Virus record (IMG/VR): IMGVR_UViG_3300045988_003762
Location: 1 to 42,671 of that record
Reading direction: 5' to 3' (one strand)
Source: a virus
DNA: 42,671 nt
Made by a program: the position numbers and the translations under genes. Numbering within the stretch: the stretch's first letter is position 1; every line of letters begins with the position of its first letter. Below, piece after piece: positions 6,227-41,796 of the stretch. Under the pieces are notes generated by a model. The model worked only from the letters and a program-made list of their open reading frames with translations. It made no database searches and was not told the origin of the DNA.

Positions 6227-8157
6227 ACGCTAGGCACGCTCCTTTGCGCCAAAGCCTGCCCGTACCCGGTCATGGGCGTCTGCGCCTCCATAATGCCGCT
6301 TGCAAGTGCGCTGTGCGCCTCCGTTTCACTGCCGCCGGTGTTGTTGCCTTCTGTCTGCCGCGTCTCCTCCTGCGGCATCAGAGCGCCCGTGATTATGGCA
6401 AGCTGCTGCTGCATCTGCATGACCATGTTCAAAAGCGTCTGCCCCTGCATGACCTTCTCCCGCACCGTCTGTATGCCCTCAAAATCCATCATCTCCAGCG
6501 CGATCAGACTGGCCTGCGCGTTCTCCGGGGCGAAAAAGTCCAGGGAATACAGCTCCTTTGCCCGCTCGTTTTGCTCCATGCGGCTGAACGGGTTTTTCTT
6601 CTGCGCCTTGATTTTGAGGTCGAACACCGGACGGCGGTACATCTCGTTGCCCAGCGTGTCAAGCCCCGTCACCTGATCCTGCAAGCCTGCGTTGTCAAAG
6701 GTGACAAACTGATACTCGTTTCCCTCGCCGGTAATGCGGAAGCTGCGGCTCACGTCGTAGAACTGCCGCATCAGCTCCACACACAGCGTGTTGATCTGCG
6801 TATACGCACGATAGCTGGCGGCGATCATGTCACGACTGGCCTTGTTTCCTGCCTCCTGCAAGGCTGCAATCGCCGCTGCTGCGGTCACATTGGTAGTACC
6901 GCCGGAGTTTACGTCCCGGTTGGCCGCCGTGTCCTTCATCTCCTCGATCTTCATCTGCGCCACGGTAACGTAGATATCGGAAAGGGGCTGTGTCACGATT
7001 TCCTTAACGCGCTGATCCCCCAGCTCGCCATTGACGTGTACCATCGGCCGGTTCCAGTCGAGAAATTCTTCTTCGTTTATGGCCGTGCTGTCGCTGACAA
7101 AGAAACGCTTCTTGGTTGCCATCATCGCGTTTTCCAGGATGTTGGCGCTGAGCTTGTCAATGTACAGCTGCGGATCCTTGCATATCGCCACATAGCCGAA
7201 GCCGATGGGTGTGCCTTTCTCCGGGTACATCACGTCCAGCACCACAGGGTACATGCCGTGGTCGTAGAACCCGCGCTCCCGGTATTCCGGGTCGTTCTGG
7301 CTGGCGTACAGCAGGGTTGAGCCTACGAACTTGACGTAGTGCAGCGCCGTCCTGCCGCTGGGTGTCTTGACCTTGTAATACCAGTCCACCACCACGCTCT
7401 TTTCGCTGGTGTCCACGCTGTCGTCATAGATGTACTCTTTCACATCAATGACCTTGCCCTTCTGCTTGCCCTCCAGTTCCGGATATTCCTTGTCCAACAG
7501 GTCGTTGTCCACCAGATCAACAATAAACAGATTCCGGCTCTTCTGGATATCCGTAATGCCCGGTTCCCAAAACAGGTTCAGCAGGTCGATGTCCCTGATT
7601 TCGATGTCACCCAGCCCGTTGTCCTTCTGGCTGTCCCAAAACACACCGTAAGCAGCCGTGCCGTGCTTCAGCTTCTCCCACCAGTTGTCGGAATACACCT
7701 GCTCAAAATGGTTGTGCTCCTGCACCACGGGTAGGATCTGGCTCAGCGTCTTTGCGCTCTGCTCGTCGCTTTCCTCACGCGGCAAAACCACCGGCTCCGG
7801 GTAGTTGTCCATAGCGTCTGCGTGCTTGTTCTGGATGGTGTTGAACAGCCATGCCGACGTGGGCTTGGGCTGCGGCGGTGTAGACTTGACCTCCTTGCCG
7901 CTTCTGTCCACCCGCTTGGCCTTGCTCTGGCCGATGCCCTCCCAGTGCCGCAGCTCCCACCACAGCTCATCGTTGACGATGCGGCTTTCCAGATTGCTCT
8001 TGCCGTCCTTGTACTTTGTCAGCAGATCAATGCCGCGCTCCACGTCCTTGTCCGTGATCATGGGCGCATCCTCCGGCCTCGTCAGCAGCATAGCCGCCAT
8101 CTCCGGCGACATGTCCTGCTCCTGCTCCGTTATGCCGGGCACTCCGAATCTCTCCAT
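6223..8157 (-). CDS. Portal protein
   Basis: 644 aa, immediately after terL. GAGGAGGAAG RBS precedes MERFGVPG; the longer track ORF would overlap terL by 130 nt. Confidence 0.8.
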   Translation of the reverse strand: MERFGVPGITEQEQDMSPEMAAMLLTRPEDAPMITDKDVERGIDLLTKYKDGKSNLESRIVNDELWWELRHWEGIGQSKAKRVDRSGKEVKSTPPQPKPTSAWLFNTIQNKHADAMDNYPEPVVLPREESDEQSAKTLSQILPVVQEHNHFEQVYSDNWWEKLKHGTAAYGVFWDSQKDNGLGDIEIRDIDLLNLFWEPGITDIQKSRNLFIVDLVDNDLLDKEYPELEGKQKGKVIDVKEYIYDDSVDTSEKSVVVDWYYKVKTPSGRTALHYVKFVGSTLLYASQNDPEYRERGFYDHGMYPVVLDVMYPEKGTPIGFGYVAICKDPQLYIDKLSANILENAMMATKKRFFVSDSTAINEEEFLDWNRPMVHVNGELGDQRVKEIVTQPLSDIYVTVAQMKIEEMKDTAANRDVNSGGTTNVTAAAAIAALQEAGNKASRDMIAASYRAYTQINTLCVELMRQFYDVSRSFRITGEGNEYQFVTFDNAGLQDQVTGLDTLGNEMYRRPVFDLKIKAQKKNPFSRMEQNERAKELYSLDFFAPENAQASLIALEMMDFEGIQTVREKVMQGQTLLNMVMQMQQQLAIITGALMPQEETRQTEGNNTGGSETEAHSALASGIMEAQTPMTGYGQALAQRSVPSV

Positions 8158-21592: not shown

Positions 21593-21807
21593 CGTCTCCA
21601 CTCCTTTCCGATTTTCCTCCGCATTGCCTGCTCCAAGCTGCGCCACTTCCCGGCCTCTACAATGTTGGTATCCTGCACCGCCTTTGCCACGCGCTCATAC
21701 TCTGCGTTCCGCTGCGCTTCGTACCTTGCCCACGCCGCGCAGTTTCCGTGGCACCCGACTTCGCGCCGGTCGCACCGCACACCGCAGGGCGGCACAATCA
21801 TACTCAT
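21589..21807 (-). CDS. Hypothetical Cys-rich protein (72 aa)
   Basis: MSMIVPPCGVRCDRREVGCHGNCAAW... ATGA overlaps at both ends. Only the last 72 codons of the 223-aa track ORF are used. Confidence 0.6.
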   Translation of the reverse strand: MSMIVPPCGVRCDRREVGCHGNCAAWARYEAQRNAEYERVAKAVQDTNIVEAGKWRSLEQAMRRKIGKEWRR

Positions 21808-22301
21808 TCCCACTTCACCAGCGCTTTCACAACACCGGCCTGCGCCGCGTCCTCGTGGCTCATCAGCACGTCCACCGTGTAGCCGTACACACCGGTATCG
21901 GCTGCTATGTACTCCTTGCCTCCCAGCGTCACGGTGCTTCCCAGCGGAATGACGTCCGGATCTACCGCTACCGCCTCGCCGATGCGCACCCACCGACCGG
22001 AGGCCGTCAGCACCTTGCCGTCCCGCTGGTTCATGTGGGCGTAGGGTGTGCAGCAGGCGCAGTACCCGGTGATGTCGCATACGATCAGGTTCTCCGGTTC
22101 CTCGGCGACCGGCGCCGCTGTCATGACCGGATCCGCTGTGTGCCCCGGCTCGTCCTCCACCTCCGGCAGCGTCAGGCACCACGCCAGAAACGCCAGCAGC
22201 ATCACCCACAGGACGATTGCCGCCGCCCACAGCCGCCTGCACCATCTTCTGGTGCGGCATAGCCGGGAGTATTCCCGCGCCCGCCTGTTCCGCTCTCTCA
22301 T
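21804..22301 (-). CDS. Membrane-anchored 3D-domain (MltA/RlpA-like) cell-wall protein
   Basis: TM segment LWAAAIVLWVMLLAFLAWCL, then ITGYCACC...VAVDPDVIPLGSTV...YIAADTGVYGYTVDV, the 3D-domain pattern. The start at 22301 is supported by an ATGA overlap with the 29-aa ORF. Confidence 0.7.
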   Translation of the reverse strand: MRERNRRAREYSRLCRTRRWCRRLWAAAIVLWVMLLAFLAWCLTLPEVEDEPGHTADPVMTAAPVAEEPENLIVCDITGYCACCTPYAHMNQRDGKVLTASGRWVRIGEAVAVDPDVIPLGSTVTLGGKEYIAADTGVYGYTVDVLMSHEDAAQAGVVKALVKWE

Positions 22302-25651: not shown

Positions 25652-25714
25652 TCACAAGTTTCTTGTTTTCAAGTGTCGAATTTCACAAGATTCTTGTTAT
25701 CTTCTTGTATACAA
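25652..25714 (+). promoter_or_regulatory. Palindromic boxes upstream of int
   Basis: TCACAAGTTTCTTGTT (25652) and TCACAAGATTCTTGTT (25683) each contain ACAAG-N3-CTTGT and are 31 bp apart. TTGTATACAA is at 25705..25714. Confidence 0.5.
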
Positions 25715-25732
25715 TCCCCATTGGAGGTATCT

Positions 25733-26776
25733 ATGAAAATCCCAAAAGCCACACAGCTGCCATCCGGCAACTGGAACGTCAACATTATGATCGACGGAAA
25801 ACGCATCTCCGTCACCGCCCCCACCAAGCGCGAGGCGGAAAACGAAGCCGCCGCCCTGAAATCCGGTGCCAAAGAGCACACTAAGGCGGAGCGCGTTTCC
25901 CTTACCGCCGCCATTGACGACTACATTGAAAGCAAAAGCGCCGTCCTCTCTCCGGCTACTGTCCGCGGCTATAAAACCGCCCAGAAAAACAGGTTCCCGT
26001 CCCTCATGAATCGTGATGTACGCACCATCACCAAACAGGACGTGCAGCTTGCTGTCAATGCGGAATCTAAGGCCGTCTCTGCCAAAACCGTAGCCAACGC
26101 CTATGGGCTCATTCGCCCCGTACTGAAGGAGTGCGGCGTGGACGTGTTCGGCGTCCGATTGCCGCAGGTGCAGAAGCCTGTCAAGAAATACCTCCAACCG
26201 GAGGACATCGGAAAACTGGTAGAGGCCGTCCAGGGCGATTCCTGCGAGATCCCAATCTTGCTGGCCGTCTGGTTGGGTATGCGCCGTTCCGAGATCGTGG
26301 GTTTGTGCTGGGACTGCGTGGACACGGAGAATAACCTTCTGCATATCCGCCGCGCCGTTGTCCCAGACGAACACAATAAATGGGTGCAGAAGGACACCGC
26401 AAAAAATCTATCCTCCCAGCGTACCATAGACTGCCCGGACTATATCATGGATAAAATACGCCAGCTTCCGCACCGTCCCGATGGCCGCCTGTTTGCTATG
26501 CACCCCGACACTGTCCGAAAGCATATCCACCGCGCCTGCGACCGCGCCGGAATTCAGGATACCACCGTCCACGGCCTGCGCCACACCAATGCCGCCGTTA
26601 TGAAGTCGCTGGGCATTGACGACCGCATCGCAATGGAGCGCGGCGGCTGGAGCTGCGAAAGCACTTACAGAAAGACATATTCCTATGTGTTTGACAGTGC
26701 TAAGACCACCGCAAACACCGCCATCAACGACTACTTTTCAGCACGAATTACAGATGAAATTACAGATGTAAAATAA
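25733..26776 (+). CDS. int: Tyrosine integrase
   Basis: GGAGG RBS. LAVWLGMRRSEI (Arg), HGLRHT (His-x-x-Arg) and a C-terminal RGGW...TYRKTYSYV (Tyr). Confidence 0.9.
   Translation: MKIPKATQLPSGNWNVNIMIDGKRISVTAPTKREAENEAAALKSGAKEHTKAERVSLTAAIDDYIESKSAVLSPATVRGYKTAQKNRFPSLMNRDVRTITKQDVQLAVNAESKAVSAKTVANAYGLIRPVLKECGVDVFGVRLPQVQKPVKKYLQPEDIGKLVEAVQGDSCEIPILLAVWLGMRRSEIVGLCWDCVDTENNLLHIRRAVVPDEHNKWVQKDTAKNLSSQRTIDCPDYIMDKIRQLPHRPDGRLFAMHPDTVRKHIHRACDRAGIQDTTVHGLRHTNAAVMKSLGIDDRIAMERGGWSCESTYRKTYSYVFDSAKTTANTAINDYFSARITDEITDVK
26743..26768 (+). repeat. 26-bp direct repeat, copy 1 (ACGAATTACAGATGAAATTACAGATG), candidate arm-type Int site
   Basis: Identical to 26973..26998. Contains tandem ATTACAGAT units and overlaps the int 3' end. 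Confidence 0.6.
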
Positions 26777-26816
26777 AAAACCGTGTATTTATGCGCCGTT
26801 CCAGCTTTTTTCTGTC

Positions 26817-26842
26817 GGGTTCAAATCCCTCCTTCCGCGCCA
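26817..26842 (+). other. attP core candidate: 3' fragment of a tRNA gene (T-loop, acceptor 3' strand, CCA)
   Basis: GGGTTCAAATCCCTCCTTCCGCGCCA has a T-loop consensus GTTCAAATC, a 7-nt acceptor strand, discriminator G and CCA. No matching 5' half lies upstream. Confidence 0.6.
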
Positions 26843-26850
26843 AAGAGAAA

Positions 26851-26885
26851 ACCGAGGAAACACAACGTTTCCCCGGTTTTTCCTT
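26851..26885 (+). terminator. Terminator following the tRNA fragment
   Basis: ACCGAGGAAAC-loop-GTTTCCCCGGT (one mismatch) followed by TTTTTCCTTTGTTTT. Confidence 0.6.
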
Positions 26886-26972
26886 TGTTTTCAACGCTTT
26901 CCGGCTTTTACCCTTTTGCGTTTATCTTGCGGTAATTACGTCCCATCTGCAAAAATCACAAGAAAATTACAT

Positions 26973-26998
26973 ACGAATTACAGATGAAATTACAGATG
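26973..26998 (+). repeat. 26-bp direct repeat, copy 2
   Basis: Identical to 26743..26768, with an extra degenerate ATTACATA unit just upstream. Confidence 0.6.
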
Positions 26999-27009: not shown

Positions 27010-27429
27010 TCAGGCGTTCTCCATGACGTGCACGGCCTGCCGCAGCGCCTCTTTCACCGTGGGGTCGTCCGTGTCCTGCATCATGCGCTCGATGGCCTCC
27101 TTGCCGCGGCTTTCGCGGGAGTATCCATCGTCGCGGGAATACCGCCCCATAGAATCCCTCTTGCGCCGGTACGAGCTGCCGCGCCCATACGTACCCCGGA
27201 TGCTCGCATCCCAGTCGCCGCCGCGGGAATACCCATCCTCGCGGGAATACCCATCGTCACGGCTGTACCCGCCGCTCTCAAACATGGCAATCTTGTCAAT
27301 GTTCTTGATAGAGGCCGTCAGCTTGTGGATCACGTCCAGCTCCCCGGTGCCCATCTCCTGCTTGCCGGCATACTCGGAAAGCTCGTCACACAGCATCTCG
27401 CGGATGCCAAAAAGTTCTTTCATGTTCAT
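27010..27429 (-). CDS. Hypothetical protein (139 aa) with GYSR(D/E)D repeats
   Basis: GAGAGGAGGGA RBS. MNMKELFGIREMLCDELSEYAGK... then GGYSRDDGYSREDGYSRGGD...YSRDDGYSRESRG. Confidence 0.7.
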   Translation of the reverse strand: MNMKELFGIREMLCDELSEYAGKQEMGTGELDVIHKLTASIKNIDKIAMFESGGYSRDDGYSREDGYSRGGDWDASIRGTYGRGSSYRRKRDSMGRYSRDDGYSRESRGKEAIERMMQDTDDPTVKEALRQAVHVMENA

Positions 27430-27442
27430 GTCGTCCCTCCTC

Positions 27443-27865
27443 TCACGCAATTCTCTCAACGGTCAGATTGCTGTTGGCAAAGCTGACCGCCTGCGTACTG
27501 GTGTTCTTCATGGCGACCGTCAGGCAGCAGCCCTTCGGAACGCACACCTGCGCGGAAACGTAGATATTGAAATAGTTTTCCACAGCAGCAGGCGTCACCG
27601 TCGCTGTGGCGCTGGTCAACGCCTCGCCGTTGACGGCCAGCGCAGCGGTGATGGCTCCCACGGCGCCGCCGGTGGGAATGGCGATGTTGCCGCCGTAAGT
27701 GACTTTGTACAGCGCTCTGCACTGGTTCGTCATCCCGCGCAGCGTCACTACCCCGGCTCCATCACGGTGCACGATGCACGGCTTGCTGTTGACCGCAGTT
27801 TCCGTCATAGGCACATTCTGGCCAGCGGGAACAATCGCGATTCCGGGATTCACGTATTCAGCCAT
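27443..27865 (-). CDS. Hypothetical beta-rich protein (140 aa), possibly a C1q/TNF-like (BclA C-terminal-like) jelly roll
   Basis: AAAGGAGGAG RBS. Ala/Thr/Val/Gly-rich sequence ending ...SFANSNLTVERIA. The fold guess rests on pattern recognition only. Confidence 0.6.
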   Translation of the reverse strand: MAEYVNPGIAIVPAGQNVPMTETAVNSKPCIVHRDGAGVVTLRGMTNQCRALYKVTYGGNIAIPTGGAVGAITAALAVNGEALTSATATVTPAAVENYFNIYVSAQVCVPKGCCLTVAMKNTSTQAVSFANSNLTVERIA

Positions 27866-28073
27866 TTTTCTTCTCCTCCTTTTTCCAAGTAGTTGCCGCA
27901 AAGGGGGAAATGAAGCCGGATGCAAGTACATCTGTATAGCTTGGCTTAAAAAGATTGTCCGCCTTATGCAGCAGATCAGCATAGTTTGTGAGTTCAACCA
28001 TGCTCATTTCGGACTTATCCATAGCGGCAAGATGGTCTACAAATTCTTGTTTCAGCTCGTCAATCGTTTTCAT
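27858..28073 (-). CDS. Hypothetical protein (71 aa)
   Basis: AGAAAGGA RBS before MKTIDELKQEFVDHL. Confidence 0.6.
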   Translation of the reverse strand: MKTIDELKQEFVDHLAAMDKSEMSMVELTNYADLLHKADNLFKPSYTDVLASGFISPFAATTWKKEEKKNG

Positions 28074-28089
28074 GAGTTCAGTCCTTTCT

Positions 28090-28122
28090 AAAAATACAGC
28101 GGCGGAGCTATTGCCCCGCCGC
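28090..28122 (-). terminator. Intra-cassette hairpin plus U-tract
   Basis: On the minus strand: GCGGCGGGGC-AAUA-GCUCCGCCGC followed by UGUAUUUUU. Confidence 0.5.
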
Positions 28123-28189
28123 GTTGGTGTCAGTATCAGCACGGGGCTGAACAGTTCGGAAATCTCGAACAGCTGGTGCTATGCACTTT

Positions 28190-28951
28190 TCAGCAGCCGC
28201 AGCCATTGCAGTTGTACTGATTGCCGCATCCGGTGTACTGGTATGGAGCAGGGACGCTGAACGAAGGAACGGGGCGCGGATTGTAATACGCAAACTGTGC
28301 GCTAACATAGTTGCGCATATCAAGCGTCTGAGCAGACTGAGAGGCCGCGAGGTCAGCAGCAAAAAGACGCTGGTTCTGTTCAGCAATCTTCGCGTCCTTC
28401 GCAGCGATCTCCTGCGCAGTGAGACGCTGATCGATGCTACGGAAGCCGCAGTTCATTGCATCAATGATGTCCCGCGTCGTGTTCTGCACGGTGTTGCGGG
28501 TATCGCACGCCTGCGTCGCCATGTCGTAGCGCACCTGAGCGATAGCTGCACGGTTTTCGCAGCAACAATCAGCGGCCTGCATCTGCATGGCGTTGAGCTG
28601 CTGCATCAGCGCCGCCTGCTGGTTGCTGCGGGAAAGCTCGGCCTGTGCAAAGCCGTTTGCCATCGCCATGTTGGTGCCGTTGACAAGCTGCGCCTGCTGG
28701 TAAAACCCGTCGCAAAGGCCCTGATTTACACTCTCGATCTTGCGCTCGACATTGGCAAAATCAGAGGTCAGCACATAACCGTCCACCACACCGCCGTTGC
28801 TGTTGTTGCCGTAGCCGTTACGGCCCCAGCCAAACAGCAGGATGATAAACAGGATGACCCACCATCCGTTTTCGCCGCCAAAGCCGCTGCCCATCATGCC
28901 GGTAGGGGCCACAGGCATGGTCATGGTGGGACTGCCGTCAGTAATTGCCAT
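28190..28951 (-). CDS. Hypothetical membrane protein (253 aa), Gln/Ala-rich coiled region, CCC motif and Cys-rich C-terminus
   Basis: AAAGGAG lies 8 nt before MAITDGSP. TM WWVILFIILLFGW. ...ADCCCENR...; ends GCGNQYNCNGCGC. Confidence 0.7.
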   Translation of the reverse strand: MAITDGSPTMTMPVAPTGMMGSGFGGENGWWVILFIILLFGWGRNGYGNNSNGGVVDGYVLTSDFANVERKIESVNQGLCDGFYQQAQLVNGTNMAMANGFAQAELSRSNQQAALMQQLNAMQMQAADCCCENRAAIAQVRYDMATQACDTRNTVQNTTRDIIDAMNCGFRSIDQRLTAQEIAAKDAKIAEQNQRLFAADLAASQSAQTLDMRNYVSAQFAYYNPRPVPSFSVPAPYQYTGCGNQYNCNGCGC

Positions 28952-29008
28952 TGTTGTCACTCCTTTCGGATAAAGATGTATTTCATCAAATCGTGGCCAC
29001 GATATTGA

Positions 29009-29218
29009 TCACAAAAGGTTCTGAAACTGCCGCGCCATCGCCTGTGCCCGGTTCAACTGCTCCTGCGTCAGCGCGCCGCTCTGCAGCATCTTCTCTACCT
29101 CTGCTTTCGGGTCGCCCTGAAAGCTCGTTTTGAACTGCTGAAACTTTTGCACCAGCTGCCCAAAATTGCCCAGCGGGTTCACGTTCCCGCCCATCGCCTG
29201 ATAAAACGGATTACTCAT
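29009..29218 (-). CDS. Hypothetical protein (69 aa)
   Basis: GGTGGAGGAGGA RBS. The start overlaps the upstream stop. Confidence 0.6.
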   Translation of the reverse strand: MSNPFYQAMGGNVNPLGNFGQLVQKFQQFKTSFQGDPKAEVEKMLQSGALTQEQLNRAQAMARQFQNLL

Positions 29219-29633
29219 CGTCTTCGTCCTCCTCCACCTTGCGTTTCTTCTTGCCCTTCATTTCGCCCACAAGAGCCGCCAGCGCGTCGAACTCTTTACG
29301 AGTCACATATTCAGGTGCGGGCGCTTTCTGCGATTCAGGCGCGTTTGCAAGCCGCTCCACAAGGTCATATACCTTCAGCGTCGGCTTTCCGCTGGCGTCG
29401 GCCTGCTTTAGGTACACCGTGGGCGCCGTACTGTCCCAAAGAGCCACCGCTGCATTAGGTGCCACCATCCAGCTTCTTGCCTCCTGCTCACCAGACACCC
29501 ACTGCACGCCGCTCTGCGGTATGGGGGTTTGCATCTGCGGCATCTGCTGGGGCATCATCTGTTGCTGCCTGAGCTGACCGAGGTTGTCCGGCATCGGCGC
29601 CATATAGGGGTTTCCGTAATAGGGGTAGTTCAT
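29211..29633 (-). CDS. Hypothetical protein (140 aa): Pro/Gln/Met-rich N-terminus, Lys/Glu/Asp tail
   Basis: ATGA overlap with the upstream gene. MNYPYYGNPYMAPMPDNLGQLRQQQMMPQQMPQMQ...KKKRKVEEDEDDE. Confidence 0.65.
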   Translation of the reverse strand: MNYPYYGNPYMAPMPDNLGQLRQQQMMPQQMPQMQTPIPQSGVQWVSGEQEARSWMVAPNAAVALWDSTAPTVYLKQADASGKPTLKVYDLVERLANAPESQKAPAPEYVTRKEFDALAALVGEMKGKKKRKVEEDEDDE

Positions 29634-30013
29634 TCCTCATCCGTCCTTTCCCAAAAATACAAAGGTGTTTCGGCTCCGGAATCCCACGTGTCATGCCAAT
29701 CTCCGTCTATCACGCACACCACGTGGGACACCAGCGCCAGAAGATATGTACCACGCGGGTGTTCCCTTGCGAAGTCGCCCACGGAATAACTGTCCGGGTA
29801 ATCCTCCGGGATAATATGCCGTCTAAATCCCAGTTTTTTCAGGTACGCGCCCCATACATTGTTGGCACTGGGCATATCCGCCAAAGCCAGCCCCTGCATA
29901 CACAGCTGCACATACGTCTCATGCCATCCCTGCCCCGTGGCCTTGCAGATAGCCCTTACCGGGCAATCCCCCACGTTTTTCCCCGCTGGGTTGGGGTTGT
30001 AGCGCACGAACAT
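29630..30013 (-). CDS. Hypothetical protein (127 aa), conserved YNPNP...GDC...DMPS...H..C.IDG...WDS pattern
   Basis: AAAGAGAGGTGG RBS before MFVRYNPNPAGKNVGDCPVRAI. The Cys/His pattern hints at a small papain-like fold (speculative). Confidence 0.65.
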   Translation of the reverse strand: MFVRYNPNPAGKNVGDCPVRAICKATGQGWHETYVQLCMQGLALADMPSANNVWGAYLKKLGFRRHIIPEDYPDSYSVGDFAREHPRGTYLLALVSHVVCVIDGDWHDTWDSGAETPLYFWERTDEE

Positions 30014-30113
30014 CACGACCACCTCTCTTTGATGTAAGCATACAGGGATATGCCCGTTTCAAAGTGGCGATAAAGGGGCTGAAAAGTGCGCGTAAAAAAA
30101 TCAGCCAACTCTA

Positions 30114-30142
30114 TTGCACTTTTTTATATTCCGCTGTATAAT
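30114..30142 (+). promoter_or_regulatory. Near-consensus sigma-70 promoter TTGCAC-17 nt-TATAAT
   Basis: Read directly. It points towards the terminator at 30190..30222, and no ORF lies between them. Confidence 0.6.
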
Positions 30143-30148
30143 CAGGCT

Positions 30149-30222
30149 ACACACCACTAACGCCGCCGTACCCCCTTTCGGCGGCAAATAAAAAGCCACA
30201 CCTTTTCAGGTGTGGCTTTTTT
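30149..30222 (+). ncRNA. Candidate ~75-nt small RNA (two hairpins)
   Basis: The predicted start is about 7 nt after the -10 element. Hairpin 1 is GCCGCCG-UACCCCCUUU-CGGCGGC (30162..30185). Hairpin 2 is the terminator. Confidence 0.45.
30190..30222. terminator. Bidirectional rho-independent terminator
   Basis: AAAAAGCCACACC-TTTTCAG-GGTGTGGCTTTTTT. T runs follow the stem on both strands. The stop codon of the 83-aa minus-strand gene lies in the loop. Confidence 0.85.
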
Positions 30223-30457
30223 CCGCGTTCAGCCCGTCTGCAATTTTTCGGTATGCCCTGCGCCGGCATCGTTTTACCACGTCCACAGACACGTTCATGC
30301 GAAATGCCTGCTCCACGCAGCTCCGCCGCCGCACATCGCACTCCGCGATGCACTGGGCTTCCTCCTGGGGTAACTCAAAAGATTGGATCCATGCGATAGC
30401 CCTCTTGGGTGCCATGCCCTGCAGCATGGCGCGAATTTCCCTGTGCTCCTGCTTCAT
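30206..30457 (-). CDS. Small sigma-70 region-4-like HTH protein (83 aa)
   Basis: LPQEEAQCIAECDVRRRSCVEQAFRMNVSVDVVKRCRRRAYRKI fits the LP...S..E.A......S...V.....RA pattern. The RBS is weak. Confidence 0.5.
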   Translation of the reverse strand: MKQEHREIRAMLQGMAPKRAIAWIQSFELPQEEAQCIAECDVRRRSCVEQAFRMNVSVDVVKRCRRRAYRKIADGLNAEKSHT

Positions 30458-41100: not shown

Positions 41101-41796
41101 TCACTTCACGATCTCCCACGTGCCGTTTTTCCCGTCCGCGCTCCGCGTCACCTTCACGGTGTACGTTTCGGTCACGCCGGGAGCCACCGGCGTCTCCGGC
41201 TCCGCAGGCTTTGTTTCCTCCACATACGGGATCCCGAAATACTCACACAGCCCCTTGGCCGCGCTCTCGGCGATCTCCTTCATGTGGGTGTGGAACCATG
41301 TGGCGTCATCCATGTTGTCGTGGAACACGTGCTCCTCGTAGAAGGAGACGGCTTTCGGCACACGCAGCTCGTACAGGTTGCTCCGCGCCACCAGCTTCAC
41401 CGTGCGCGGGTAAATTTGCTTCCGGTACTTCACCATGATCTCGCTCAGCTTCTTGCCGCGTTTTGAGTAGGTGTAGTACATAGGATGGCATCCCCGTGAG
41501 TTGCCCTTGCCGTCTGCGCTGCCGTTGGTATGGCTGACGTAATGCACGTCTGCGCCCCACGCGTCGCTCTCCCGCACGTTCTGCTTCATGATGGCATCGC
41601 CGTTGTCGCCGTTCATGGGGGTGCGCCGATAGCCGCGCTTGGTGGCAATGCCGCAGCGGTTCAGGATCGGCTCCAGAATGTCGATGTACTCGTTGTTCTC
41701 CAGTGCCTCATAGCACTGTTTCCCGTCCGGGCGGGGATATACACAGGGATTTGCCATGTGCATAGCCGGGGACAGGTAGACCTTCGGGGCGGCCAT
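41101..41796 (-). CDS. Endolysin, N-acetylmuramoyl-L-alanine amidase (Amidase_3-like)
   Basis: VYLSPAMH..., ADVHYVSHTNGS (SxHxN-type) and FYEEHVFHDN (E..FH.N) motifs. The gene follows the holin directly. Confidence 0.75.
   Translation of the reverse strand: MAAPKVYLSPAMHMANPCVYPRPDGKQCYEALENNEYIDILEPILNRCGIATKRGYRRTPMNGDNGDAIMKQNVRESDAWGADVHYVSHTNGSADGKGNSRGCHPMYYTYSKRGKKLSEIMVKYRKQIYPRTVKLVARSNLYELRVPKAVSFYEEHVFHDNMDDATWFHTHMKEIAESAAKGLCEYFGIPYVEETKPAEPETPVAPGVTETYTVKVTRSADGKNGTWEIVK

Follow-up and report, generated by a model that had tools for sequence, protein, structure and literature searches.

Accessory lysis proteins of phages include XhlA of the Firmicutes prophage PBSX, which is a membrane and coiled-coil protein, XepA of PBSX, which is a beta-sandwich protein, and the spanins of Gram-negative phages. 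In Gram-positive anaerobes, usually just a holin and an endolysin are considered. Another class of genes in Gram-positive prophages, the morons, is found between the lysin gene and attR and is exemplified by the toxin genes of streptococcal and staphylococcal phages. The DNA analyzed here (the window) is the IMG/VR virus record IMGVR_UViG_3300045988_003762, the complete 42,671-bp genome of a phage, which has direct terminal repeats. A cassette of seven minus-strand genes (A–G, 27010-30013) lies in the window between the end of the late operon and attP and, together with a small regulator gene upstream of it, constitutes a module whose extent, order, portability, and linkage to lysis genes were established along with the folds of two of its proteins and a link between A and B. 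The module is tentatively read as a phage-cycle accessory extension of the lysis cassette that would act at the host envelope late in infection, a reading that is possible rather than probable.

The module resembles XhlA, XepA, and the spanins in that its genes are immediate neighbors of the holin and endolysin genes where the late operon ends. Protein D resembles such accessory proteins as a predicted membrane-anchored coiled coil with cysteine residues, and protein F does so as a soluble beta-sandwich without an enzymatic signature. Unlike these systems, the module comprises seven to eight genes including a putative enzyme and a regulator, belongs to phages whose hosts have no outer membrane, shows no detected homology to XhlA, XepA, or the spanins, and is not beside the amidase gene in the window. 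With the morons of Gram-positive phages, the module shares the genomic slot and the insulation by a terminator. However, morons are variable, usually single, and secreted, whereas the module is a fixed multi-gene set with a regulator that is kept across phage types and also in a phage that has only been seen to grow lytically.

Gene content of the cassette

The original prediction described seven packed minus-strand genes between a terminator and attP, and all of them are present with plausible ribosome-binding sites. The genes, with their protein lengths in amino acids (aa), and the candidate regulator gene, which encodes a helix-turn-helix (HTH) protein, are as follows:

30206-30457, minus strand: 83-aa sigma-70 region-4-like HTH gene, candidate regulator, upstream of the cassette
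29630-30013, minus strand: gene A, 127 aa, ATG start behind AGAGAGGTGG, matches phrog_3754
29211-29633, minus strand: gene B, 140 aa, Pro/Gln/Met-rich N-terminus and KKKRKVEEDEDDE tail, matches phrog_21718
29009-29218, minus strand: gene C, 69 aa, Gln-rich and helical, matches phrog_22984
28190-28951, minus strand: gene D, 253 aa, hydrophobic segment GWWVILFIILLFGWG, CCC motif, and GCGNQYNCNGCGC end, matches phrog_16490
27858-28073, minus strand: gene E, 71 aa, helical, optional member
27443-27865, minus strand: gene F, 140 aa, predicted all-beta jelly roll of the TNF/C1q type
27010-27429, minus strand: gene G, 139 aa, GYSR(D/E)D repeats

ATGA overlaps join A with B and B with C, and E and F overlap as well. 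The odd compositions noted originally, i.e., the Cys/His pattern of A, the Pro/Gln/Met-rich B, the CCC-containing membrane protein D, and the GYSR(D/E)D repeats of G, are all as described. A, B, C, D, and F match PHROGs families annotated as "unknown function" (E 2e-29 to 4e-54), G has a weak match to phrog_28802, and E has no PHROGs or Pfam match. No named function was found above threshold for any of the genes in Pfam, NCBIfam, and PADLOC. Profile searches of the PDB with A, F, B, D, and G gave nothing significant, and when 16 diverse homologues of D and 17 of B were scanned singly against Pfam, nothing but scattered coiled-coil noise appeared. Neither a signal peptide nor a membrane segment is present in the six proteins other than D. 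Structure predictions cover A and F.

Extent, order, and distribution of the module

With F as the query, 13 loci were detected in species genomes, most of which are metagenome-assembled genomes (MAGs) of Oscillospiraceae and other Clostridia, together with 490 matching viral contigs of the gut type in IMG/VR. The search with the F protein of Butyrivibrio virus Ceridwen added 495 further IMG/VR contigs, largely from the rumen. The order A-B-C-D-(E)-F-G is kept in the 175 loci (94 gut-type and 81 rumen-type) that were fetched and inspected from these about 985 matching contigs. E is carried by 45 of 93 gut loci and by no rumen locus. Among the phages of gut and rumen Clostridia, few unexplained gene sets are as common as this module.

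The 83-aa regulator gene, which was omitted from the original prediction, stands upstream of the cassette in 79 of the 94 gut loci. A hidden Markov model of the regulator has a match ≤900 nucleotides (nt) upstream of A in at least 112 of 151 loci, and in the remaining loci the gene is mostly further upstream or divergent in form. In the related locus L039, the amidase is 88% identical to that of the window, whereas the regulator is 56% and A is 54% identical, and the divergence of the regulator thus tracks the cassette and not the neighboring backbone. Since the identity of the regulator follows the cassette rather than the amidase, the sequences indicate that the evolutionary unit is composed of the regulator together with A, B, C, D, (E), F, and G. 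The matches of the regulator are weak (phrog_3512 "sigma factor" with E 6e-5; Pfam Sigma70_r4 with 16.8 bits against a cut-off of 24.1). No sigma-70 region 2 was found in its 83 residues, the match over residues 19-80 covering region 4 alone, and the protein is better described, as judged from these matches, as a small HTH regulator than as a sigma-70 factor.

The module is present in the siphoviruses Dulem virus 33 and Ceridwen, which have tape-measure and major tail genes and unrelated head genes, and also in the podovirus-like window. Ceridwen, in which the six core genes are all intact, lacks both an integrase and an excisionase, and only a lytic cycle has been seen for it, on Butyrivibrio fibrisolvens DSM 3071. 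The genus Butyrivibrio is described as asporogenous, and Butyrivibrio proteoclasticus has lost most sporulation genes. By these comparisons, the module is portable and independent of virion type and lifestyle. Its movement as a whole between unrelated phages implies that its function is self-sufficient.

Two phages carry HNH or homing-type endonuclease genes inside the cassette, one between C and D on the opposite strand in Dulem virus 33 (18785-19336 of L001) and the other between F and G in Ceridwen (L095, 20518-21312). Homing endonucleases tend to settle beside conserved, important phage genes. Naturally broken and extended forms of the cassette were also observed. In L027 (8167-8395), the first 62 codons of B run straight into F with the loss of C and D. 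A bacterial contig of 120 kb (L009, 8628-9881) has a 5′-truncated D together with F and G beside a full-length sigma-factor gene. In rumen phages, a 108-aa gene (...NANTCIKLGAYFTIYDHLFP...) is often found 3′ of G, e.g., at 21711-22037 of Ceridwen (L095), with 31 of the 81 rumen loci carrying it, and could be one more optional gene of the module.

Linkage to lysis genes

As far as gene order tells, the module is usually found directly behind an endolysin or holin gene. In Ceridwen, the order is holin, endolysin, a 64-aa membrane protein, the small HTH protein, the terminator, and the cassette. In L039-type loci, the amidase stands immediately before the regulator, and Dulem virus 33 has a PGRP-type endolysin about 1.2 kb upstream. 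In the rumen contig L191, the last 17 nt of a Phage_holin_1 gene are shared with a fused A–B gene, which is followed by C, and late expression would therefore be expected there. A same-strand endolysin was found ≤4 kb upstream in at least 57 of 130 loci with a median distance of 703 nt to A, a count that is a lower bound from three endolysin seed families in loci with 4 kb of upstream sequence. The loci without such a match include 22 of the window's own lineage, where a giant gene lies in between.

The amidase gene of the window (41101-41796) is separated from the module by the giant ejection-protein gene. By comparison of the loci, the genes for internal-virion and giant proteins appear to have entered the lineage of the window as a block that now separates the lysis gene from the module. 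The 88% identical amidase gene of L039 lies at 6681-7367 and, unlike that of the window, directly precedes the regulator and cassette.

Protein A and its link to B

A has four residues (D16, C17, H97, and D108) that are invariant in 33 diverse homologues. Its model (pLDDT 95) has a small alpha-plus-beta fold with Cys17 at the N-terminus of a helix and the other two residues on successive strands, of which the first begins with His97 and the second ends with Asp108, so that the C17/H97/D108 triad is placed as in papain-like (clan CA) peptidases. A has no Pfam match and no PDB sequence match, and its Foldseek matches are weak, with Josephin-2 at E 0.03, prob 0.92, and TM 0.49, and the C39 domain of PCAT1 at TM 0.46. 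On the basis of the model, A is a candidate for a small papain-like Cys-His-Asp enzyme of the peptidase or transglutaminase type. It shares with C39 (PCAT1), Josephin, and transglutaminase-type enzymes an invariant Cys where a helix begins, followed by His and Asp on successive strands, and its neighbors are Gln- and Lys-rich. Transglutaminase joins Gln and Lys residues. Unlike these enzymes, A stays below TM 0.5 to them, has no match in Pfam, and is accompanied by no identified double-glycine leader.

The A family is composed of 4388 clusters at 50% identity. In a large protein library, two in-frame fusions of A and B (P0197 and P0254) were found, of which the second half matches the B profile with 99.6% probability. 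The two are 40% identical to each other over their full length with the junction included, which indicates that the fusion was inherited and is not an assembly error and that A and B work together; from the sequences, the two proteins are taken to act as partners. No close relatives of the fusion were found in IMG/VR, where the matches are ordinary split A and B genes. The longer proteins of the A family are A–A tandems, A–B fusions, or proteins with low-complexity tails, and Pfam gave no added known domain in them. Three A–A tandem duplications (P0193, P0222, and P0173) were identified, two of them with an N-terminal hydrophobic anchor. Elsewhere, the A-type enzyme domain may be membrane-tethered or exported. 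The fused A–B resembles a catalytic domain, a linker, and a binding domain. A two-part endolysin similar to PlyC, composed of A and B, was considered and judged unlikely, given that A has no likeness to CHAP or NlpC/P60 and that canonical endolysins are encoded alongside.

Protein F and the exosporium fold

The small beta-rich protein, which was originally said to be reminiscent of C1q/BclA jelly rolls, proved to be so at the level of the fold. The model of F (pLDDT 92) has jelly-roll strands over residues 2-138 of 140, and its closest PDB structure in Foldseek is ExsF (9h3d, E 1.9e-6, TMq 0.74), accompanied by BxpB, ExsFA, the C-terminal domain (CTD) of BclA, and F-BclA. The exosporium matches span E 2e-6 to 2e-5 and TMq 0.6-0.74 and are followed by EDA, 4-1BBL, and C1q. 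In the comparison with predicted viral structures, F comes closest to stand-alone phage proteins of 130-145 residues (TM 0.82-0.87), and then to fiber tips. By its model, F is a stand-alone TNF/C1q-type jelly roll similar to ExsF, BxpB, and the BclA CTD. The ExsF/BclA fold, known from Bacillus spore surfaces, has a large phage-borne branch, and F is represented by 5853 protein clusters at 90% identity. F is also the most conserved gene of the module, with a median identity of 86% against 44-67% for the others in the gut set.

The sequence of F gave no match to BclA_C (Pfam PF18573) at E up to 1, a profile of eight homologues found no PDB chain below E 0.4, and the exosporium-leader model in NCBIfam did not match F, which also has no collagen stalk. 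ExsF trimers are known to hold Pro-rich N-terminal leader peptides in the cleft between their subunits (PMC12357932). F has in common with ExsF, BxpB, and BclA the 10-strand jelly roll, and with ExsF and BxpB the stand-alone length of about 140-170 residues and the lack of a signal peptide; conserved Pro-containing N-termini are present in D and B as candidate partners. Unlike BclA-type proteins, F has no sequence membership, collagen stalk, or exosporium leader. Unlike the exosporium proteins, it is encoded by phages, including the phage of a non-sporulating host, and its trimer and peptide binding would follow by analogy. A 2011 mBio paper on the isopeptide attachment of BclA to BxpB is listed as retracted, and the analogy was not used.

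Proteins D, B, C, and G

D has a conserved N-terminal MPVAP peptide and a Gly-flanked hydrophobic segment with the Kyte–Doolittle (KD) maximum at residues 29-43. This is followed by an N/Q/A-rich helical region with the CCC motif and by a Pro-rich and Cys-rich C-terminal end, for a total of 10 cysteines. C129-131, P227, and C251 are invariant. One membrane-spanning segment is predicted, and the low-charge composition suggests that the long part of the protein lies outside the cell. The C-terminal half of D together with E (28466-27841 of the window) does not align between phages that are 90-96% identical on both flanks, and two C-terminal types of D exist. The swapping of D alleles fits an exposed part under diversifying selection, and the pattern suggests that the swapped outer half contacts something variable outside the cell. 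In comparison with L016-L037, the region 27841-28466 is a recombination hot spot, the relatives having a different C-terminal half of D and no E.

B has a conserved beta-rich core (WV.GE..A..Y.VAPN..V.LWDS....YLK..DASG.P) followed by a helix and a basic-then-acidic tail, while the core of C reads F.QF...F.GDP....LL.SG..SQ.Q.N. G has helical ends and a disordered middle rich in Arg, Ser, Tyr, Gly, and Asp, with GYSRDD repeats and an RRDSMGRYS motif. The idea that E is a copy of the N-terminal part of G was rejected, as BLASTP gives no alignment.

Possible role of the module

In the envelope-directed lysis accessory tentatively proposed here, the small HTH protein, made from the end of the late operon, would switch on the cassette behind the terminator. 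A works in physical association with B, as their natural fusions show, and C would accompany them in keeping with the fixed gene order. D would sit in the membrane via its single hydrophobic segment with an N/Q-rich helical stalk and a variable Pro/Cys-rich tip outside, an arrangement suggested by its composition and allele swapping. F may form a trimer like that of ExsF and, by analogy with it, dock a short Pro-containing partner peptide, for which the conserved N-termini of D (MPVAP) and B (PMPDNL) are candidates. G could serve as a disordered Arg/Ser/Tyr-rich linker or matrix. Two sub-modules may be distinguished in this way, A+B+C and D+F+G. Together, the proteins could complete the breakdown of the envelope or the release of virions, or they could block re-adsorption and superinfection; the swapped outer half of D would suit phage exclusion or a block of re-adsorption as well as a lysis step. 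The function of the module is probably unrelated to spores. If it acts late and at the envelope, it would represent a new step of lysis, release, or exclusion in Gram-positive anaerobes, and the cultured pair of B. fibrisolvens DSM 3071 and phage Ceridwen makes the system directly testable.

Several points weigh against this proposal. The hosts have no outer membrane, and a spanin-like step would have no obvious target in them. The strong terminator between the late operon and the cassette also gives the latter the look of a moron expressed in the lysogen, no sigma-A-type promoter was found ahead of A in the window, and the window's own amidase gene is not adjacent to the module. The fold matches of A are weak, and the fold search gave it no resemblance to the CHAP or NlpC/P60 wall hydrolases. 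Lone A homologues occur in the early regions of Bacillus Tsamsa-like phages, Geobacillus phage GBK2, and Lak megaphages. The conservation of F exceeds what is expected of a protein that faces variable host surfaces, and the presence of SpoIVA in all 14 prophage-bearing host genomes tested (see below) is compatible with a link with sporulation.

Lysogenic-conversion cargo, of which the position was called typical in the original prediction, would be a moron transcribed in the resting prophage that alters the lysogen, for instance by D at the surface excluding other phages. This explanation, which has lost ground and is now considered unlikely, draws on the slot between the late terminator and attP, which is classic for conversion genes of Gram-positive prophages, and on the strong terminator that insulates the cassette from the late operon. 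It would also suit the outer half of D, whose alleles differ between near-identical phages in the way expected of a factor for exclusion or surface specificity, and the truncated remnants (D′-F-G) that persist in a bacterial contig. However, the fixed order with a regulator across about a thousand contigs of very different phages, behind lysis genes, is not that of variable cargo, and the module is intact in Ceridwen, where there is no integrase. The overlap of A–B with the holin gene in L191 speaks for late expression there, most of the proteins (six of seven) lack both a signal peptide and a membrane segment, the guanine-plus-cytosine (GC) content of the cassette equals that of the phage backbone and not that of the AT-richer lysogeny block, and a promoter-like site on the minus strand was not found.

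The speculative likeness to clostridial spore-surface proteins in the original prediction can be made concrete as a module whose proteins are synthesized by the mother cell while a lysogen sporulates and become part of the coat or exosporium. In that case, F would be a nap or anchor protein (ExsF/BclA-like), D and G a Cys-rich and CotG-like matrix, A a processing or cross-linking enzyme, and the HTH protein GerE-like. The nearest solved structures to F are indeed exosporium proteins, the absence of signal peptides fits assembly in the mother-cell cytoplasm, and the Cys-rich, Gln-rich, and Arg/Ser/Tyr-repeat compositions are in keeping with it. SpoIVA was found in 14 of 14 prophage-bearing host genomes and Spo0A in 5 of 5 tested. 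However, SpoIVA is also encoded by 305 of 399 sampled Clostridia genomes (76%). Without a correction for relatedness, finding it in all 14 thus has a P of about 0.02 (0.764 to the 14th power), and within the family the result carries no information. F occurs in 5 of 399 species genomes of the class sample and 7 of 401 of the family sample, which renders a test of association with sporulation almost powerless. The reading is weakened by Ceridwen, a phage with the whole module intact that was isolated and propagated lytically on B. fibrisolvens, of a genus described as asporogenous. Furthermore, F stands outside BclA_C by sequence and has neither a collagen stalk nor an exosporium leader, its fold is common in phage fiber tips and giant-virus proteins, and no recognizable sigma-E- or sigma-K-like promoter was found. 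A role on the spore is thus regarded as distinctly improbable.

A related idea, held to be just as improbable, is that the module is a miniature assembly kit similar to the exosporium nap that works outside sporulation. A, tethered to B, would process or cross-link the Gln/Lys-rich B and C or the N-terminus of D, the products would be joined onto F trimers, and D would be the membrane anchor. A covalently stabilized layer would thereby cover the dying or lysogenic cell, or the membrane fragments that lysis sets free, and it could shield progeny from re-adsorption or alter the interaction of particles or cells with the gut.

An early function in host takeover or counter-defense, in which A would be a deubiquitinase-like or other peptidase directed against a host modification or defense protein and the other proteins its helpers, is very doubtful. 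Its appeal is that the best fold match of A is the deubiquitinase Josephin-2, with viral tegument-like deubiquitinases found too, and that lone A homologues stand beside an ocr-like anti-restriction gene and a kinase gene (Tsamsa) or beside RecE/RecT (GBK2). The A family is very large, and the cassette of Ceridwen runs on into the early region. Against this, the fold matches are weak, PADLOC gave no matches, and the holin overlap in L191 points to late expression. Anti-defense loci are usually mosaic, single small genes, not a fixed order of seven to eight genes with membrane and jelly-roll proteins.

Extra virion parts, the other possibility named originally, with F as a capsid decoration or fiber knob and the other proteins as assembly helpers, are very improbable: TNF/C1q-like knobs do occur at tail-fiber tips and whiskers, the genes are co-directional with the late operon, and F is highly conserved and abundant, but podovirus-like phages and siphoviruses whose head and tail genes are unrelated have the same module, the BFVD fold neighbors of F are labeled Sipho-, Podo-, and Myoviridae alike, F has no N-terminal attachment part given that the jelly roll fills residues 2-138, receptor-binding parts usually vary more than any other gene whereas F varies least in the module, and lysis genes and a terminator separate the module from the structural genes.

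Boundaries of the cassette and genome setting

The window is classed as podovirus-like on the ground that no tape measure was found in it, and it encodes a polyvalent ejection-type protein of 2434 aa. Other features of the window are as follows:

3.5-14 kb: methyltransferases, terminase, portal, and major head protein
about 14-23 kb: early, recombination, and replication genes
25673-26776, plus strand: integrase, in the lysogeny block, matches phrog_1
26744..26998: attP region delimited by two copies of the repeat ATTACAGATGAAATTACAGATG, the integrase gene following on the plus strand
28099..28122, minus strand: internal terminator-like hairpin with a U-run between D and E, -23 kcal/mol, z -4.35
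30190..30222: bidirectional intrinsic terminator that closes the late operon, -29.9 kcal/mol (minus strand) and -26.5 kcal/mol (plus strand), each with z about -5
41101-41796: amidase, ahead of the ejection-protein genes

The position next to the attachment site and behind the late terminator was correctly recognized in the original prediction. ATTACAGATGAAATTACAGATG is a 22-bp exact repeat with copies starting at 26747 and 26977, and by eye the identity extends 3 bases further to the left (CGA) for a total of about 25 bp. Among 78 related IMG/VR contigs, 23 terminate 126-521 nt past G, which, like the repeat, supports the placement of attP. The description of the cassette as terminator-bounded holds for its upstream side, where the strong bidirectional hairpin at 30190-30222 has U-runs on either side and holds the stop codon of the sigma-like gene; it does not hold downstream, where hairpin scoring found no convincing terminator 3′ of G (z -0.6). 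The internal hairpin divides the cassette into A–D and E–G.

No shared promoter motif was found ahead of A among the relatives, whose upstream regions are unrelated between sub-lineages, and no sigma-A, sigma-E, or sigma-K pattern could be called there with confidence in the window and its relatives. Some relatives have a -10-like hexamer directly after the T-run of the terminator, and others have a small extra open reading frame (ORF). The latter, of 40-55 aa, lies within 120-160 nt 5′ of A in L002, L003, L051-L094, L095 (Ceridwen), L096, and L132. It is absent from the window, where 30022-30190 constitutes about 170 nt of non-coding DNA conserved in its lineage. The extra ORF encodes a helix-loop motif, e.g., RLLALGFTEQMAMDIL or RLMDCGYSFLDAL, that is UBA-like in appearance.

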